Origin: a virus
DNA: 26,836 bases
UHGV virus genome: UHGV-0045954
Strand: one strand, 5' to 3'
Numbering within the stretch: position 1 is the first letter of the stretch; each line of letters starts with the position of its first letter. The notes under the pieces were generated by a model. The model saw only the letters and a list, made by a program, of their open reading frames with translations. It did no database searches and was not told the origin of the DNA. This document shows, in pieces, positions 17,173 through 25,368 of the stretch. A program made the position numbers and the translations under genes.

Positions 17173-17347
17173 TTTGTTCTTCCTCTTCGTCTTTTATTTC
17201 GTGATATGAGTAATTGCAGTAGTTAAAGAAAATATCTTTTGCTTCGTCATGTATTTCATCAGGCGTCGCATCATCATCCACTTCGAATTCATCCTCGAAA
17301 TCTCCACCGGCTATTCCCGTTTCAATAATTATTTTAAACTTTCGCAT
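17165..17347 (-). CDS. small highly acidic protein (60 aa)
   Basis: ATG 17347; product rich in D/E (FEDEFEVDDDATPDEIHDEAKD...KDEEEEQ); upstream region is lost in the poly-C/N gap so the RBS cannot be assessed. Confidence 0.4.
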   Translation of the reverse strand: MRKFKIIIETGIAGGDFEDEFEVDDDATPDEIHDEAKDIFFNYCNYSYHEIKDEEEEQNG

Positions 17348-17354
17348 TTAACTA

Positions 17355-17455
17355 CCCCCCCCCCCCCCCCCCCCCCCCCCCNNNNNNNNNNNNNNNNNNN
17401 NNNNNNNNNNNNNNNNNNNNNNNNNNNNNNNNNNNNNNNNNNNNNNNNNNNNNNN
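17355..17455. other. assembly gap: poly-C (27 nt) followed by 74 N
   Basis: Homopolymer then N run in an intergenic position; same style as the gap at 781..910. Confidence 0.9.
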
Positions 17456-17544
17456 CTCCCGCCCTTCCGGGCGGCCTCCTGATGTTCTGAGGGTGCAGAA
17501 ATCCCTCCGGTTAAGGATTAAATTTTTAACAGAGCTAAATTTAA

Positions 17545-17901
17545 TTATTCAGTTCTGGATTTTGTCGCCCTGCGTATCCGCGCTTTCGCGTTACGCTCAA
17601 TCTGAATTAGCTTTTCTATATTTTTTCGCCTTTCCCGCTCCTCCTGACGCAAGAGCCTTACATCATCTGCCAGTCTGGTTTCTCTTTTCGCCACAGAGAG
17701 CATCCAGTCAAATGGCTCCACAACTGCACCGCAGATTTTACAGCGGACCTGACGCTCTTTTTCGTCAACCCGGACAGAGGCGTGATGACAATATGGTCTT
17801 TCCGATGGCTCATAAAGAAAATTAACCTGATTACGAGGGTCATCCTCTTTTACCGGAAATAAAACGATATTGCTTAACTCATCCTCTGGTTTTATTTCCA
17901 T
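17545..17901 (-). CDS. hypothetical protein with CHH...CxxC zinc-binding motif
   Basis: Start at ATG 17901 (MEIKPEDEL...) with AAGGAGAGGAG RBS; YCHHASVRVDEKERQVRCKICG motif; basic coiled C-terminus. Confidence 0.5.
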   Translation of the reverse strand: MEIKPEDELSNIVLFPVKEDDPRNQVNFLYEPSERPYCHHASVRVDEKERQVRCKICGAVVEPFDWMLSVAKRETRLADDVRLLRQEERERRKNIEKLIQIERNAKARIRRATKSRTE

Positions 17902-17958
17902 GCTCCTCTCCTTTGATGCGAATGCCAGCGGTAATTGAAGCCTGATAGCTAATTTCAC

Positions 17959-18381
17959 TCACAGTACCGCCTCCTGAAAATTACCCTGATAGAAAGCCAG
18001 TACACGCTGCATAGCTTCACTCTTCCGGCACTCGCGACAGATTATGTTTAGGCGACTGTCGTAGCGACGTATTTCTCCGTCAGGTAACGACCAGATAAGG
18101 TCCGGATCAACCACAACCGGTTTCTTCAGCTTTGCCCTCGATAATTTTTTGCGGGCATTTTGCCAGTCTTTACGAGCCTGTTCAGACGGGAATAACCCGT
18201 AGCCAGAATTGTATACATCGCCACTGGCAACCAGCTCTCTGGCCAGAACGCTCATCAGATATCTTGTTGCCCCAGTTTTAGCTTCCAGTTGTCGTAACGT
18301 CTCGCGCCCACTCTGGCGTACGAGTTCAAGAACCTGTCCTTTAATTTTTTCCCGCTCTTCTTGTGTAAAAACTTTTGCCAC
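17959..18381 (-). CDS. hypothetical early-region protein (140 aa)
   Basis: GTG start at 18381 preceded by AGGAGG at 5 nt; no family recognised. Confidence 0.5.
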   Translation of the reverse strand: MAKVFTQEEREKIKGQVLELVRQSGRETLRQLEAKTGATRYLMSVLARELVASGDVYNSGYGLFPSEQARKDWQNARKKLSRAKLKKPVVVDPDLIWSLPDGEIRRYDSRLNIICRECRKSEAMQRVLAFYQGNFQEAVL

Positions 18382-18421
18382 AAGCCCTCCTGAAAATTAC
18401 CTCATGACCAGAAATTAACAC

Positions 18422-19492
18422 TTACCCCCTGAAGCCCGGCGGAATTTCGTTATCCGGTTCAGAAATATGATTCACACAACGCTGGTTGTTCGTGCCGCTT
18501 ACCGGGAGCAGCCAGGGGTTTTCAAAATTCCGGTCCGGTCCAAAAAACGTCGTCGCTCGCTGAACAAATTCCGTTCCCGTTTTCCCGGTAGCCGCAAGGT
18601 ATCTTGCGTAACGCCTCACGCCATCCAGCATGGCCTCTGGTGGCACCCCCTCGCGTAATCTGGCTTTCCAGGCACTGAAAGCGGATTTCTTCGGGTTTGC
18701 CCCGGCACGCAACGGGTATTCCCGCCAGACCTGTTCGAACACATCAGGATAATCCACTCGTCCCACAGGCTGCCCGGTGTTTTCCGGGACTACCCGATCG
18801 GCTTCCCGCTGAATGGCGGAATCGGCTTCAGGCTGCTGAAGTTGGTGTGATTGCTCCTGCCTTGCGGTCATCACCTGCTGCACAGCGCCCGAATCGGCTT
18901 TCAGCGCATACGCTGAATCGGCTTCCGGTGTCGTGCCTGCGGGCTGGCCAGGAGTGACGGTCTGAACATCCCCTGCCTGGTTCGTGGCGTTTTTTACGCC
19001 ATGGACCATAGTGTTTTGATCTTCTTGATCTGTATCTTTATCTGTATCTTTATCTGTCGTGACTCGTCGTGACATGTGCGTGACATTTCGTGACTCGCCG
19101 TGACAATCGCCATTTTGTTCCCGCTTTCTTTCCCTCTCTCGCTGCGCCCTCTTGCGCTCTGCCGGAGATTTTGCGGTTTGCGAAATATTGCCGTTGTCCT
19201 CTTTCAGCACCTGGCGTTTTTCCCATCCAGTGATTAAATCACCATCAAGTACCCGCCCCTGCATCGTCTGCAAAATTGAATCAATTACCTCTTCTGTCAC
19301 GTCGAGCGCACTTGCCAAATCTTCTGTCGTGACATCAATGTGACCTCGCGTGACATTTCGTGACGCGCTCACCAGGAGGTGGATATACACTGCCATCACT
19401 GTTGCAATTGGCTGCCCTGACACCCTGGCAATTGTTCGCCACTTAGGGTCATTTGGCATGTCATGCCATAATCTGAGCCAGGCGTTAGCCAT
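18422..19492 (-). CDS. replication initiator with phage replisome-organizer N-terminal domain
   Basis: Start at ATG 19492 (MANAWLRLWHDMPNDPKWRTIARVSG...) with GAGGTG RBS; gene contains the iteron arrays internally, as lambda O contains ori. Confidence 0.7.
   Translation of the reverse strand: MANAWLRLWHDMPNDPKWRTIARVSGQPIATVMAVYIHLLVSASRNVTRGHIDVTTEDLASALDVTEEVIDSILQTMQGRVLDGDLITGWEKRQVLKEDNGNISQTAKSPAERKRAQRERERKREQNGDCHGESRNVTHMSRRVTTDKDTDKDTDQEDQNTMVHGVKNATNQAGDVQTVTPGQPAGTTPEADSAYALKADSGAVQQVMTARQEQSHQLQQPEADSAIQREADRVVPENTGQPVGRVDYPDVFEQVWREYPLRAGANPKKSAFSAWKARLREGVPPEAMLDGVRRYARYLAATGKTGTEFVQRATTFFGPDRNFENPWLLPVSGTNNQRCVNHISEPDNEIPPGFRG
19058..19104. repeat. iteron array 1: five CGTGAC repeats at 10-11 bp spacing, preceded by an AT-rich ATCTGTATCTTT repeat
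   Basis: CGTGAC at 19058, 19068, 19079, 19089, 19099; the adjacent 19028..19057 carries tandem ATCTGTATCTTT. Confidence 0.65.
19327..19363. repeat. iteron array 2: four (C/T)GTGAC repeats at 10-11 bp spacing
   Basis: CGTGAC at 19327, TGTGAC at 19338, CGTGAC at 19348 and 19358, plus one inverted GTCACG at 19295. Confidence 0.6.
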
Positions 19493-19563
19493 ACTCACCT
19501 CTTCTGATACCGAATCTTTTTACTCACGAGTTGCCGGAAGCGATTCGATATGACTATTGTCAG

Positions 19564-19989
19564 TCAATGTACTGCCACAGCATTTCCTGCCGGGCCACCA
19601 CGGTTCATCTGATTGAAACCGGCGATTGCCACTGCGACAAAATCATCAGCGTCTCTCACCAGTCGCTCCCGCGTCTCCACCAACTCCCGAAAATAAGCTG
19701 AACTGTGGCTGCGCATTCTGGCCACCAGCAAAGGTGGCATTGCCTTTTCGATCGCTGGTAACAACGCCTGAATTTTTTCAACTGCATCAGGGGTGTCTTT
19801 CTCCACCCAGCGGAAAATTTTCTGGGTATTGCGAGCCAGGGCTTCCGGATGGCTGTCGTCATACAGTTCCGGGAACGTCATTCCCAGCTCGAAATACGCT
19901 TTGGTAATTTTCGCAGCCGGTACTTTTTCGCCGTCCGGATGCGCCCAGGCATTCATCGCCATGCGGATGTGTTCATGCTTGATTTTCAT
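19564..19989 (-). CDS. YdaT-like protein (Rac-type early regulator / putative toxin, CII position)
   Basis: Start at ATG 19989 (MKIKHEHIRMAMNAW...) with GGGGGG RBS; N-terminus matches Rac YdaT as recalled. Confidence 0.6.
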   Translation of the reverse strand: MKIKHEHIRMAMNAWAHPDGEKVPAAKITKAYFELGMTFPELYDDSHPEALARNTQKIFRWVEKDTPDAVEKIQALLPAIEKAMPPLLVARMRSHSSAYFRELVETRERLVRDADDFVAVAIAGFNQMNRGGPAGNAVAVH

Positions 19990-20215
19990 GAATCCCCCCT
20001 TGGTTAGAAGGCGGATTATGATCAGAACCGGGAATGACAACCGTCGGTATGTGTAACTCATATTTGAGCGCCCCGGCAGTGACTGCCTGAATTAGCAACG
20101 CCCATTTCCACGGAACCTCTTCCCCCCACATGCTGACTGTGGTTTTTGACGTTCCTAGAGCTGCGGCTGTTTTAACAACTCCGCCAAAATAGCCTAATAC
20201 TTCTGATTTTTTCAT
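19973..20215 (-). CDS. YdaS-like Cro/HTH regulator
   Basis: Start at ATG 20215 (MKKSEVLGYFGGVVKTAAALGTSKTTVSMW...) with GGAG RBS; helix-turn-helix; divergent from the repressor gene. Confidence 0.65.
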   Translation of the reverse strand: MKKSEVLGYFGGVVKTAAALGTSKTTVSMWGEEVPWKWALLIQAVTAGALKYELHIPTVVIPGSDHNPPSNQGGIHENQA

Positions 20216-20306
20216 GAGTCGCTCCATAAAACTGAACGTCAAAAGTTTAATAATCAAAACCAAAGAAAGTCAAGAAACAAAACCATCTGTGTTTTAAAAT
20301 CAAAAC
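20216..20306. promoter_or_regulatory. immunity-region divergent promoters and operators
   Basis: Minus strand: -35 TTGACT (20273..20268), about 18-nt spacer, -10 TAAACT, driving ydaS. Plus strand: -10 TAAAAT (20295..20300) ending 7 nt before the repressor ATG (leaderless). Repeated TCAAAAC motifs at 20255 and 20299. Confidence 0.5.
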
Positions 20307-20945
20307 ATGAGCAAGCAAACTATATCTGAACGCATAACCCAACGTATGCATGCGCTAAACCTGAAAGGCAAAGACCTTGTCAATGGCACTGGCGCATCAA
20401 AAGGCTCCGTAAGTCAATGGATGAACGGTGGAGGAGCGCCGTCCTCGCGTTACATAAGTTCACTGGCAAAAATATTGAAAGTAAACGAAAATTGGCTTCT
20501 TAATGGAGGAGAGTTAAATACAGGTGATTCGCTTGATCTATCTTTACCGCCGATAAAAACGGTTCCGCTACTATCACTTCAGCAGGCAGCAAGCTGGAGT
20601 GATTATATGAAAAATTCCTCAATAACCTCTTGTGTGCAGCTTGTCGGAGAAATCCCGGTCAATACCTTTGCAGTTGTTCTAGAGAGTGACAGTATGTCAA
20701 CATCTGGTGGGGGAGTTTCCATCCCAAATGGTTCAACAGTTTTTGTTGATCCCGATCGAACCGTACAACCAGGAAATATTGTCCTTGCCTTACCCAAAGG
20801 GACCACAACACCTGTCATTCGTAAACTGGAGATAGAAGGGCCGGATATTCTTTTAGTCCCCACGAATCCTCGCTACCCTTCAATTATGCTGGATGATCTA
20901 TCTTGCATATTGGGCGTATGCTTTAAAATTCAACAAGATATTTAA
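20307..20945 (+). CDS. CI-like repressor (HTH plus S24 LexA-like autopeptidase domain)
   Basis: 212 aa; N-terminal HTH (GTGASKGSVSQWMNG), C-terminal SDSM Ser motif and downstream Lys (VIRKLE); no SD, consistent with a leaderless pRM-type transcript. Confidence 0.8.
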   Translation: MSKQTISERITQRMHALNLKGKDLVNGTGASKGSVSQWMNGGGAPSSRYISSLAKILKVNENWLLNGGELNTGDSLDLSLPPIKTVPLLSLQQAASWSDYMKNSSITSCVQLVGEIPVNTFAVVLESDSMSTSGGGVSIPNGSTVFVDPDRTVQPGNIVLALPKGTTTPVIRKLEIEGPDILLVPTNPRYPSIMLDDLSCILGVCFKIQQDI

Positions 20946-21888: not shown

Positions 21889-22456
21889 TAGATAACCAAC
21901 GAAGCTAAGGTTGGTAATTAAGGAGTTCTCCACGGGTGAGGTGGAGTGCGTGCGCCGGACACGGGTGAGCATCCGGCACTGACAGTTTACTGAAAGGATA
22001 TTTCCCTGAAAAGTCAGACCATAACGCGAAAGCGCACGGCGAGGTAGCTGGTTCATAGATAGCCTGTCGTTAAATTTTCGTCGACCGTGCGCTTCCGGTT
22101 GTGGCAATCCGCGAAATGGCGCGGCGGTAAGTATGGCGGGGTTATTCCTTCCCCCGTTGAGGACACCGGGTTGTCAGGTTGACCATACGCTTAAGTGACA
22201 ACCCCACTGCAACGCCCTCTGTTATCAATTTTCTGGTGACGTTTGGCGGTATCAGTTTTACTCCGTGACTGCTCTGCCGCCCTTTTTAAAGTGAATTTTG
22301 TGATGCGGTGAATGCGGCTAAGCGCACGCGGAACAGTTAAAACCAAAAACAGTGTTATGGGTGGATTCTCTGTATCCGGCGTTAATTGTTAACTGGTTAA
22401 CGTCACCTGGAGGCACCAGGCACCGCATCACAAAACTCATTGTTGAGGGCGCGATA

Positions 22457-22926: not shown

Positions 22927-25368
22927 ATGAGCACTGATAAAGAAGAATTTGCACTATATTGCGAAGCAAAAAATGACAAAGTAAGAAAACGCCTAGGAAT
23001 TAAAGGTGGTTTTTACTGGACTACAGCAAAAAAATTATCTGTTGCAATCTCCCGCTGCATTACCGCAATGGATGACAACGATTATGATGAAGACGACTTT
23101 AAAAAACCCGTCCGCGTCAATTTGCCCGTTGTTGACGACCTTCCGCCAGAAGGCGTGTTTGATACTGAATTCTGCAACCGCTATGAAAAAGGCGGGAAAG
23201 ATGGCATCACAATGACATTTATCGGCCCTTCCCCCTCTGTTCAGGACAAACCAGCCAGCACTGACAATACCAACATCAACGGCGAAGCCATGACTGAGAT
23301 TGAGGAGAGCATGCTTCTGCCTGTCTCCGGTCAGGAACTGCCCATTCGTTGGCTTGCTCAACACGGCAGCGAAAAACCAGTAACGCACGTTTCACGCGAC
23401 GAACTCCAGGCATTACACATTGCACGGGCTGAAGAACTACCGGCTGTTACTGCCCTGGCTATTTCGCATAAAACCAGTCTGCTCGACTCGCTGGAGATTC
23501 GCGACCTCCACAAACTGGTTCGTGACACTGACAAAGTTTTCCCTAATCCTGGTAATTCAGACCTGGGACTAATAACTGCTTTTTTCGAAGCATACCTAGA
23601 CGCTGACTACACTGATCGGGGTCTGCTGACAAAAGAGTGGATGAAAGGAAATCGTGTTTCACGCATCACCCGCACGGCTTCCGGTGCTAATGCTGGCGGT
23701 GGGAACAAAACCGATCGCAATCCGAATTTAGTACACACCCTCGACACACTGGATGTGGAGATTGCAGCAGCCACACTTCCGATGGATTTTAATATTTATG
23801 AAATTCCGGGCAGCGTTTATCGTCGCGCAAAAGAAGTAGTCCTGAACAAAGAAAGTCCGTTCAAAGAATGGTCCGCAGCACTTCGTGCAACCCCGGGTAT
23901 TCTGGACTATTCCCGCGCCGCTATTTTTGCACTTATCCGAAGCGCACACCCTGAATTTTATCACTACCCGGGACGCCTTCAGGGGTATATCAACGCCTAT
24001 TTGACGGAAACTGATCACGAGAACCCCAGCAAGGAAACTCTCACAGCTGCCCGGCATACGCCGGAAAAAGATATCCTGGAAGAAATTAACCGCGAGGTGG
24101 TTACTGAGCGTGAAACAGAAGAAGAAAAACCACAACCATCTGACGCAATGGCAGGTGAACAGGCAACAACTGAAACAATGGAACCGGATACAACTGAACA
24201 TGGCCAGAACGCGCAGTCGCTGGATGCTCAGTCGCAGGTGAGTTCCGCTAACCAAGTAAAAGTCACCGCTGACGAAGTAAACAAAATTATGCAGGCAGCC
24301 AATATCAGCCAGCCTGACGCCGATAAGTTACTTGCTGTATCGCGTGGTGAATTTGTTGAGGGGATTAGCGACCCTAATGATCCGAAATGGGTCAAAGGGA
24401 TCCAGACTCGCGATTCTGTGAACCAGAACCAGCATGAATCGGAACGGAACGACCAAAAAGCGGAACAAAACAGCCCAAATGCGTTACAAAACGAGCCAGA
24501 AACGAAACAATCCGAACCAGTGGCGCAACAGGAAGTGGAAAAAGTCTGCACCGCCTGCGGTCAGACCGGCGGCGGCAACTGCCCTGATTGTGGCGCGGTG
24601 ATGGGCGACGCAACATACCAGGAAACATTCGATGAAGAGTATCAGGTTGAAGTTCAGGAAGATGATCCGGAGGAAATGGAAGGCGCTGAACATCCACACA
24701 AGGAGAACACTGGCGGCAATCAGCATCACGATAGCGATAATGAAACTGGCGAGACGGCAGATCACTCAATTAAGGTGAACGGTCATCAAGAAATCACATC
24801 CACCAGCAGGACGTGTGACCATCTAATGATCGACCTTGAAACCATGGGAAAAAATCCTGATGCCCCGATCATCTCAATAGGTGCAATATTTTTCGATCCG
24901 CAAACCGGAGATATGGGACCGGAATTTAGTAAGACTATCGATCTGGAAACTGCTGGCGGAGTCATTGATCGGGACACCATTAAATGGTGGCTTAAGCAAT
25001 CACGCGAAGCGCAATCTGCCATTATGACCGATGAAATCCCGTTAGATGATGCACTGTTACAATTGCGGGAATTTATCGACGAAAAATCCGGTGAATTTTT
25101 TGTTCAGGTCTGGGGAAATGGAGCCAACTTCGACAACACGATTTTGCGCCGTTCATACGAACGGCAGGGGATCCCCTGCCCGTGGCGTTACTACAACGAT
25201 CGCGATGTACGCACAATCGTTGAGCTGGGGAAAGCCATAGACTTCGATGCCAGAACGGCTATTCCATTCGAAGGTGAGCGCCATAATGCACTTGATGACG
25301 CCCGTTACCAGGCAAAATACGTTTCAGTTATCTGGCAAAAACTGATCCCGAGTCAGGCTGATTTTTAA
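22927..25368 (+). CDS. RecE-like N-terminal region fused to a C-terminal DEDDh (DnaQ-like) 3'-5' exonuclease domain
   Basis: 813 aa. N-terminal two thirds resemble E. coli Rac RecE as recalled ([21 protein letters not shown]..., zinc ribbon [21 protein letters not shown]). C-terminus has Exo I DLET, Exo [10 protein letters not shown], Exo [12 protein letters not shown] motifs. Confidence 0.7.

Follow-up and report, generated by a model that had tools for sequence, protein, structure and literature searches.

A putative two-part replication origin embedded in the initiator gene of a Qin/Rac-like lambdoid prophage

The question raised by the replication initiator gene of virus genome UHGV-0045954, analysed here as one stretch of 26,836 nt (the window), is why a phage should carry two separate arrays of the same short direct repeat within a single gene, one of them in the codons of its presumed DNA-binding domain. 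The gene, recognised in the list of open reading frames (ORFs) and by PHROG 3729, occupies positions 18422-19498 of the minus strand and encodes 358 aa from the GTG at 19498; the public annotation starts at the ATG at 19492. Results of our analysis indicate that this gene probably contains, in two parts, the site at which a Qin/Rac-like lambdoid prophage starts its replication. The core origin would be formed by the array in the linker region of the gene (L-array) together with a directly following A/T-rich, strand-asymmetric tract, while the array in the codons of the N-terminal domain (N-array) and one inverted copy of the repeat, 223 bp upstream in the gene, would be a second site for the same initiator.

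Read on the plus strand, exact copies of CGTGAC start at 19058, 19068, 19079, 19089 and 19099, with spacings of 10, 11, 10 and 10 bp, in agreement with an initial annotation of this DNA, which had reported five repeats at helical-turn spacing. On the gene strand they constitute the L-array of five GTCACG iterons with 10/11-bp spacing (19058-19104, minus strand), located in the codons of a disordered linker. Directly 3' of it lies the A/T tract (19020-19057, minus strand), which is A-rich on the gene strand, contains GATAAAGATACA three times and is a putative DNA unwinding element. The adjoining AT-rich tandem repeat that had been noted there was resolved by Tandem Repeats Finder as a 12-bp unit TCTTTATCTGTA in 2.9 copies with 95% matches (19023-19057), next to a 10-bp array at 19056-19105, and the GC content of 0.33-0.35 at 19000-19059 is the minimum of the gene. 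The N-array (19328-19364, minus strand) lies where the second array of four repeats had been placed, although only three of the four copies are exact (CGTGAC at 19328, 19349 and 19359 on the plus strand) and the one at 19338 is TGTGAC, GTGAC being common to all; on the gene strand this corresponds to three GTCACG and one GTCACA with spacings of 10, 10 and 11 bp. No A/T tract adjoins the N-array. The earlier estimate that the arrays are about 270 bp apart holds for the start-to-start offset of the aligned arrays (260-270 bp) and not for the edge-to-edge gap, which is 223 bp. A lone inverted iteron between the arrays (19296-19301, plus strand) reads GTCACG on the plus strand and CGTGAC on the gene strand, in codons D66-V67-T68. 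In the whole window, on both strands, the hexamer is matched 16 times vs. 10.4 times expected by chance; the same-strand exact hexamer occurs in 8 copies within 307 bp vs. 0.06 expected (Poisson P ~4e-15).

In the central part of the initiator gene (aa 132-160 of 358), the iterons of the L-array stand beside an A/T-rich tract, as they do in lambda-type origins, and the direct repeats with their A/T element are located inside the gene of the protein predicted to use them, as is the case with replisome organizers. Judged by sequence, the L-array and the A/T tract bear every hallmark of a lambda-type or SPP1-type intragenic origin. With the N-array, the gene contains two separated clusters of one repeat, as do replicons with a second iteron set.

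Both arrays are in frame within the 358-aa ORF (18422-19498), as stated in the initial annotation: the N-array codes for ASRNVTRGHIDVT (aa 45-57), the L-array for CHGESRNVTHMSRRVT (aa 132-147), and the A/T tract behind the latter for TDKDTDKDTDQED. The repeated SRNVT/VTT peptide segments that had been pointed out are indeed encoded at both arrays, but they are not the selected feature, since the iteron hexamer occupies all three reading frames and the likeness of the peptides is therefore a by-product of the DNA repeat. One could argue conversely that the second array is itself a functionless by-product, namely a peptide repeat, an internal duplication or a gene-conversion remnant, given that SRNVT and VT peptides recur at both places, that a 17-nt stretch, GTCACGAAATGTCACGC, is common to both arrays of the window, and that about 30 nt are nearly identical in both arrays of one relative (L120). 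We consider this highly improbable. Besides the reading of the hexamer in three frames, the cores, unlike their saturated flanks, have synonymous sites that are frozen from species to species, a switch between the Val codons GTA and GTC tracks the motif of the L-array with the peptide unchanged, and the N-array is present in at least four motif classes; by these comparisons the explanation appears largely refuted.

The selection acting on the N-array was assessed in 21 GTCACG-class genes from different species. Outside the cores, the fourfold-type third positions of these genes have a median identity of 35%. The normalised codon entropy of the eight conserved codons whose third base falls in an N-array core is 0-0.27, and exactly 0 in six of them, vs. 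mostly 0.45-1 in 45 other conserved codons (Mann-Whitney p 7e-6). Ala45 is encoded by GCG in 19/21 and Ser46 by TCA in 20/21 genes, and the remaining six codons are invariant (21/21 each): GTC for Val49, ACG for Thr50, GGT for Gly52, CAC for His53, GTC for Val56 and ACG for Thr57. Val67, whose codon keeps the inverted iteron copy, is encoded by GTG in 19/19 homologues that have Val at this position. That homologues might reveal the second array as a coincidental codon repeat had been named as a possible refutation of its significance; the synonymously frozen cores argue against such a coincidence. In the case of the A/T tract, the 36 nt after the last linker iteron of 36 homologues are mostly of 14-39% GC, vs. 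42-69% GC in the genes that contain them. In the 12 codons after this iteron, Asp is encoded by GAT and GAC in a ratio of 105:3 vs. 335:374 elsewhere (p 3e-27), and Lys by AAA and AAG in a ratio of 87:13 vs. 287:258 elsewhere (p 2e-11), a bias that holds also in GC-rich hosts, in genes of up to 69% GC. Judging from this codon usage, the A/T tract is selected as DNA.

A second line of evidence comes from the comparison of motifs between relatives. A scan of viral contigs for the N-terminal domain (N-domain) yielded only 99%-identical E. coli copies, which were of no use for comparison, and a one-genome-per-species collection was used instead; the loci sampled were 47 from its contigs plus several phage records, with 49 loci in the motif comparison. 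The N-domain search gave 912 protein clusters at E up to 0.001, from Gamma- and Betaproteobacteria, and the N-terminal 100 residues are strongly conserved, the best 120 of the 912 clusters all being at least 58% identical. The C-terminal domains are swapped among the relatives and the neighbouring genes differ between loci, the N-domain being the only constant partner of the arrays. Shiga toxin (Stx) phage 75/02, for instance, shares only the C-terminal 479 nt with the initiator gene and has no GTCAC array. Phages and prophages of Escherichia, Pseudomonas, Aeromonas, Bordetella, Ralstonia, and others share the two-array layout, with the arrays at matching places of the gene. In every array-bearing locus, one array lies at codons ~45-57 and the other in the linker, where a GATAAA-type A/T tract follows closely on its 3' side.

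The core motif occurs in four forms, GTCACG, GTAACG, CGAACG, and GCAACG. In the 49 loci, the pairs of N-array and L-array motifs are GTCAC/GTCAC (27), GAACG/GAACG (9), GTAAC/GTAAC (4) and none/none (9), with no discordant pair. Two of four further phage records carry concordant arrays; Ralstonia phage Firinga has GCAACG, and a Manatee Spring phage CGAACGC, in both arrays. In a neighbour-joining tree of the N-domain, built with the array-coded loop masked, the GTAAC loci fall in three separate places, which indicates at least three origins of this form. Both arrays of L105 and L107 (Pantoea, Enterobacter) use the Val codon GTA where those of L109 (Erwinia) use GTC, and since this change is synonymous, the motif switch cannot be protein-driven. 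These comparisons indicate at least four switches of the motif, each of them in both arrays at once. Because the synonymous sites are frozen and the motif changes match in both arrays, the comparative evidence identifies both as selected DNA sites of one specificity, not selected as protein code.

This lends indirect support to the idea of two initiator-binding sites put forward in the initial annotation. Two other explanations offered there do not fit. A duplication of the ori-containing segment is contradicted by the finding that the iterons alone are shared and that the second array has no A/T tract, and a recombination-derived hybrid by the conservation of the layout at the same gene positions across many genera, from which it follows that the two-array layout is old. 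The arrays themselves are less constant in size, which varies by frame-preserving steps: homologues have 3-7 copies in the L-array at the same place, the N-array of E. albertii has six copies, and the L-array of the window contains, in the protein alignment, a 21-bp (two-iteron, 7-codon) insertion, HMSRRVT, relative to most homologues. Judging by the ~30 nt that are nearly identical in both arrays of L120, sequence has apparently been copied from one array to the other in some lineages.

The protein that would read these sites matches PHROG 3729 ('replication initiation protein') with E 6.9e-257, residues 3-358 aligning to positions 1-356 of the 356-position profile, and also gives weak matches to PHROG 'replisome organizer' families. 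With 'DNA replication protein O' of Escherichia phage vB_EcoS-640R1 it shares 100% identity, and with homologues in other phages 97.5-98.5% (98.5% each in the case of Evi and Tritos); labels of these close homologues include 'primosomal protein I' and 'replisome organiser'. A Pfam search at E up to 0.01 assigned no family to it and thus did not place it in the lambda O family; when the limit was relaxed to E 10, the search added HTH_Crp_2, PhyR_sigma2, and Phage_rep_org_N and nothing else, all under the cut-off. The last of these (PF09681) scored 12.8 bits vs. a cut-off of 23.3 (E 0.12; residues 6-123 on positions 1-118 of 121), which is insufficient for an assignment. The predicted layout comprises an N-terminal winged-helix domain (aa 1-95), a basic helix (~112-129), a disordered acidic linker (~130-249), a C-terminal helical domain (250-319), and a DnaT-like tail (335-358). 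The AlphaFold2 model of the N-domain, in which the predicted local distance difference test score is mostly above 90 over about aa 11-90, consists, in ORF numbering, of helices 3-16, 18-27, and 31-47, a loop (48-57), helices 58-65 and 69-79, and a beta hairpin (80-89). Its fold is that of a DnaD-like winged helix, as in replisome organizers. In this model, the N-array codons correspond to the end of helix 31-47 and the loop preceding the helix-turn-helix, and the codons of the L-array and A/T tract to the disordered linker.

The loop of aa 48-57 deserves separate consideration. It carries insertions of 6-20 residues in some relatives (7-20 aa in L086, L110, and L120), and the GTCACG and CGAACG clades are told apart by residues at two places only, this loop (T50E, H53R/Q) and the basic segment 103-112. 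Because the N-array encodes the sole folded part of the winged helix that differs systematically between the specificity classes, we mention, as a long shot, that the loop may help to read the iteron, so that the binding site and the peptide recognising it would be the same stretch of DNA, with origin and initiator interlocked. If this were true, a new origin specificity could come about, and be passed on to descendants, in one piece, and array expansion would directly remodel the protein, as the loop insertions of L086, L110, and L120 may illustrate.

A rival proposal, that the GTCACG arrays are bound by another phage or host protein and serve transcription control, packaging or partition, could appeal to the closest structural relative of the N-domain, the N-terminal domain of DnaD, which acts mainly as an oligomerisation module, and to the absence of any class-specific residue in the recognition helix. 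It is nevertheless quite unlikely, since the arrays travel with the N-domain across hosts while the neighbours and C-terminal domains change, the joint motif switches, at least four in number, require a co-inherited and co-evolving reader, and the array always adjoins a selected A/T tract.

We therefore return to the initiator as the reader and to the two-part origin. In this arrangement the N-terminal DnaD-like winged-helix domain would bind the direct repeats, spaced 10/11 bp apart, in head-to-tail order on a single face of the helix, and melting of the DNA would take place at the A/T tract. The preferred role of the N-array is that of an auxiliary loading or bridging site that would raise the local occupancy by the initiator; the ~225 bp between the arrays would be looped or wrapped, and this would help to open the A/T tract. 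Its location near the 5' end of the gene, in a transcribed part, could also allow the N-array to exert feedback on the transcription that reads into the origin.

Several observations weigh against this reconstruction. The N-array is not universal: nine of the 49 loci with the same N-domain show no recognisable array of the tested motifs, and a cyanophage relative apparently has the linker array only. Between the GTCACG and CGAACG clades, no class-separating residue was found in helices a2/a3 or in the wing. The N-terminal domain of DnaD is mainly involved in oligomerisation and not in sequence-specific binding, and DNA reading by the N-domain is thus our assumption. In the literature we found no binding, footprint or replication data for any member of the family. 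Finally, the last-to-last distances between arrays (249, 258, 267, 270, and 339 bp) differ by multiples of 3 bp and not of 10.5 bp, and fixed helical phasing was rejected; given this lack of a fixed phase, and of an A/T tract at the N-array, the data give no support to a strict model of a loop with the arrays on one face of the helix.

Some of these points would suit an alternative in which the N-array is a negative control element, acting by handcuffing with the L-array on the same or a sister molecule, by titration of the initiator or by blocking transcription of its own gene, each of which would restrict initiation or the synthesis of the initiator, like the second iteron sets of plasmids P1 (incA) and F (incC). 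It has the same motif as the origin array and no unwinding element beside it, it is located ~130 nt into the transcribed gene, downstream of Cro/CII-like genes, and its variable distance and phase to the L-array suit pairing or a roadblock better than a rigid wrapped complex. Moreover, the second gp38-bound site of phage SPP1 has been proposed to stall forks and not to fire (PMC6316719). A lytic phage origin, however, gains little from copy-number limitation, and cores that remain frozen over very wide divergence fit an essential cis function at least as well. We regard a control element as a serious but rather unlikely alternative, and an auxiliary site of the two-part origin as the preferred role. 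The question is directly testable, as synonymous recoding would destroy the N-array and leave the protein untouched.

As regards helicase loading, the earlier statement that no helicase loader is evident downstream is confirmed: the profile search of the two downstream ORFs that had been proposed as a check identified a DUF977/Ren-like (LygF) gene (17959-18381, minus strand; Pfam DUF977, E 2.9e-29; PHROG 142 'Ren-like exclusion protein') and a zinc-ribbon protein gene (17545-17958, minus strand; weak Zn_Ribbon_TF match; PHROG 1621, a family of unknown function), neither of which is a loader. Among the window ORFs scanned, no match to Phage_lambda_P, DnaC/IstB or DnaB was found, so there is no P-type loader downstream, and the annotation of the complete genome of phage Evi (40 kb; initiator 98.5% identical) shows no loader or helicase gene either. 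Loader calls were made by Pfam, as a Walker-A regular expression misses the P-loops of DnaC type (GTGKN). Among relatives with the same N-domain, the gene behind the initiator is lambda-P-like in L087, L108, and L114, DnaC/IstB-like in L102, L107, L120, and L003, and a primase-helicase gene in L002; the loader-less arrangement of the window is an exception among the relatives checked.

A candidate contact with the host machinery is the C-terminal tail of the initiator, ...VNHISEPDNEIPPGFRG (18425-18499, minus strand), which resembles the tail of DnaT. The NCBIfam DnaT model scores 19.3 bits vs. a cut-off of 201 and covers residues 335-358 only, which does not make the initiator a DnaT; in the PDB, the tail matches 6aep (E 0.0032) and chain 9zbt_D, a DnaT (E 0.072). 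It recurs on otherwise different C-terminal domains (L096, L104, L107, P0029, P0043). A DnaC-type gene lies directly downstream in four tail-bearing relatives, namely L003, L107, and L120 (by Pfam) and Stx phage 75/02 (L004; by annotation), while in L096 a ParB-like gene and in L104 a 547-aa ORF, outside the Pfam scan, comes next; wherever a phage loader gene adjoins a tail-bearing gene, the loader is of DnaC type. A recent paper on the preprimosome structure does not state what the very end of the DnaT tail contacts. With no loader encoded by the phage, the helicase is presumably host-derived, and it is a reasonable inference from these sequences that the host DnaB-DnaC helicase would be recruited by the C-terminal domain together with the DnaT-like tail. 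A loader-less phage may in this way plug into host DnaB-DnaC.

Upstream of the initiator gene lies an immunity region (19564-20945), from which transcription reads into the initiator. It includes a YdaT/CII-like gene (19564-19992, minus strand) and a P22-Cro-like gene (19973-20215, minus strand), both assigned by Pfam/PHROG, and a CI-like S24 repressor gene (20307-20945, plus strand; Pfam/PHROG and the annotation of phage ON470612). A gene for the DicF antisense small RNA (sRNA; 22231-22282, plus strand; Rfam, 76.7 bits) is present in a dicB-type operon leftward of the repressor. By its DicF and its DicC/Cro-like and DicA/CI-like genes, the element is related to the K-12 prophage Qin, but intact where Qin is defective.

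Other potential signals were searched for around the arrays. No DnaA box is present within 18400-19600, the nearest (18362) being in the next gene. Matches to the oriC-type 13-mers GATCTNTTNTTTT in the A/T tract were rejected, as with up to two mismatches there are 5 in the window vs. 10.4 expected, and so was an internal promoter or terminator, such sites being no commoner than in shuffled sequences; the sole promoter-like match of the plus strand is composed of the iterons themselves. A third, distant GTCACG cluster, comparable to SPP1 oriR, is absent from the complete 40-kb genome of Evi, where only these two arrays were found. About 12 bp past the A/T tract there is an inverted repeat with a 13-bp stem and a 5-nt loop (18978-19008), followed on the plus strand, antisense to the initiator gene, by a T-run; it recalls the inverted repeat beside the A/T tract of ori-lambda. 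Many relatives show a further element. In L002, L091, L095, L096, L099, L105, and L107, a C-run/G-run element, CCCCCC-TTA-CCCCCC...GGGGG, which codes for PPLPP-like peptides, lies just 3' of the A/T tract (at about nt 450-480 of the gene in L002); the window has no such element. In L122 and L130 (genes from 2501), the same N-domain is fused directly to a different domain (...YYVY.V......GIS.NPW.R...), with TACGTAGTA-type repeats at the fusion and no N-array, which may represent a different type of origin on the same winged helix.

Several features of the window lie apart from the initiator gene. Runs of N (masked) occupy 806-897 and 17382-17455, the second being located in the intergenic space 17347-17545; as this space exceeds that of phage ON470612, identical in other respects, by ~104 nt, the window contains a small insertion there. 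A hok/sok-type toxin-antitoxin locus (15918-16243, minus strand) comprises a sok RNA (16068-16243, 112 bits) overlapping a 70-aa Hok-like ORF (15918-16130). The region downstream of the Q antiterminator gene (13213-14034) encodes the sRNA STnc100 twice and a tRNA-Met (CAT), all on the minus strand (11986-12174, 12450-12643, and 12994-13069), at the site where Stx phages carry tRNAs and stx genes. An 813-aa RecE-like protein (22927-25368, plus strand) combines an N-terminal Exonuc_VIII domain with a C-terminal Rv2179c-like 3'-5' exoribonuclease domain.

Of 5,426 complete E. coli genomes, 2,036 contain the origin segment (window 18990-19400), in up to five copies per genome, and the corresponding records are mostly annotated as 'hypothetical protein'; some 360 records, no more than 80-90% identical to the segment, are labelled 'DnaT-like ssDNA-binding domain-containing protein'. 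Names given to the gene disagree and include 'hypothetical', 'replication protein O', 'primosomal protein I', 'DnaT-like', and 'replisome organizer'. A search of the literature on replisome organizers, iterons, DnaT-like proteins, and Eru replication regions brought up neither this family nor an intragenic origin with two arrays, and no experimental work on the gene. Intragenic iteron origins and second iteron sets are both already known; what we did not find described is a second iteron set in the initiator's own DNA-binding-domain codons, conserved and changing in step over four motif classes. The locus would be a case of dual coding, in which an array of sites for the initiator overlies the codons of its DNA-binding domain, with frozen synonymous sites and at least four concerted switches of apparent specificity. 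It would also define, for a prophage type that is very common in E. coli and includes O157 prophages, the module acting in cis in replication, and it supplies a ready rule by which origins, as well as classes of incompatibility or specificity, can be predicted within the family.

The proposed origin can be compared with several known systems. Two separated clusters of the same initiator-binding repeat, with binding only predicted in the window, are found in satellite phage P4, where the second cluster, crr, acts in cis as a required partner of ori, and in plasmids P1 and F, where the second iteron sets (incA and incC, respectively) act in cis as a brake. These clusters are intergenic or kilobases apart and their initiators are unrelated; to our knowledge, none of them lies in the DNA-binding-domain codons of its own initiator. 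With E. coli DnaT (primosomal protein I), the initiator shares the C-terminal tail, its last 24 residues matching ...SEPD..IPPGFRG, while the rest of the protein is unrelated; because only the tail matches DnaT, as the above scores of 19.3 vs. 201 bits reflect, the public label 'primosomal protein I' is misleading.

The likeness to ori-lambda concerns the position of the origin in the initiator gene, at the junction of the DNA-binding N-terminal and the loader-contacting C-terminal parts, the direct flanking of an A/T-rich tract by iterons whose number varies, and the location of the initiator gene directly downstream of cro/cII-like genes. On the other hand, Pfam detected no sequence relationship between lambda O and the window initiator. 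The iterons of lambda are ~19-bp inverted repeats, bound by O dimers, in one cluster, whereas those of the window are direct repeats with a 6-bp core every 10-11 bp and have a second cluster inside the DNA-binding-domain codons, and lambda possesses P, whereas the window has no loader gene. In Stx phages (P27 and 933W are included in this comparison with the lambdoid phages), extra iterons add 13 aa to the protein (PMC7466680); extra iterons lengthen the protein in both cases, by 7 aa here.

In phage SPP1, the second site is situated ~13 kb away, in an intergenic region with an A/T tract of its own, and the phage encodes its own loader and helicase (gp39 and gp40), whereas in the window the second array is 223 bp away, in the same gene and without an A/T tract, and the phage of the window initiator has neither protein. 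Gp38 (G38P) of SPP1 binds direct repeats by an A/T-rich unwinding element in its own gene and, in addition, a second repeat region (PMC6316719). The window has the same combination of repeats and A/T element within the initiator gene and a second repeat region, binding by the initiator being predicted, and its initiator likewise has an N-terminal domain of DnaD-like winged-helix fold and weak matches to replisome organizers, with the Pfam match under the threshold.

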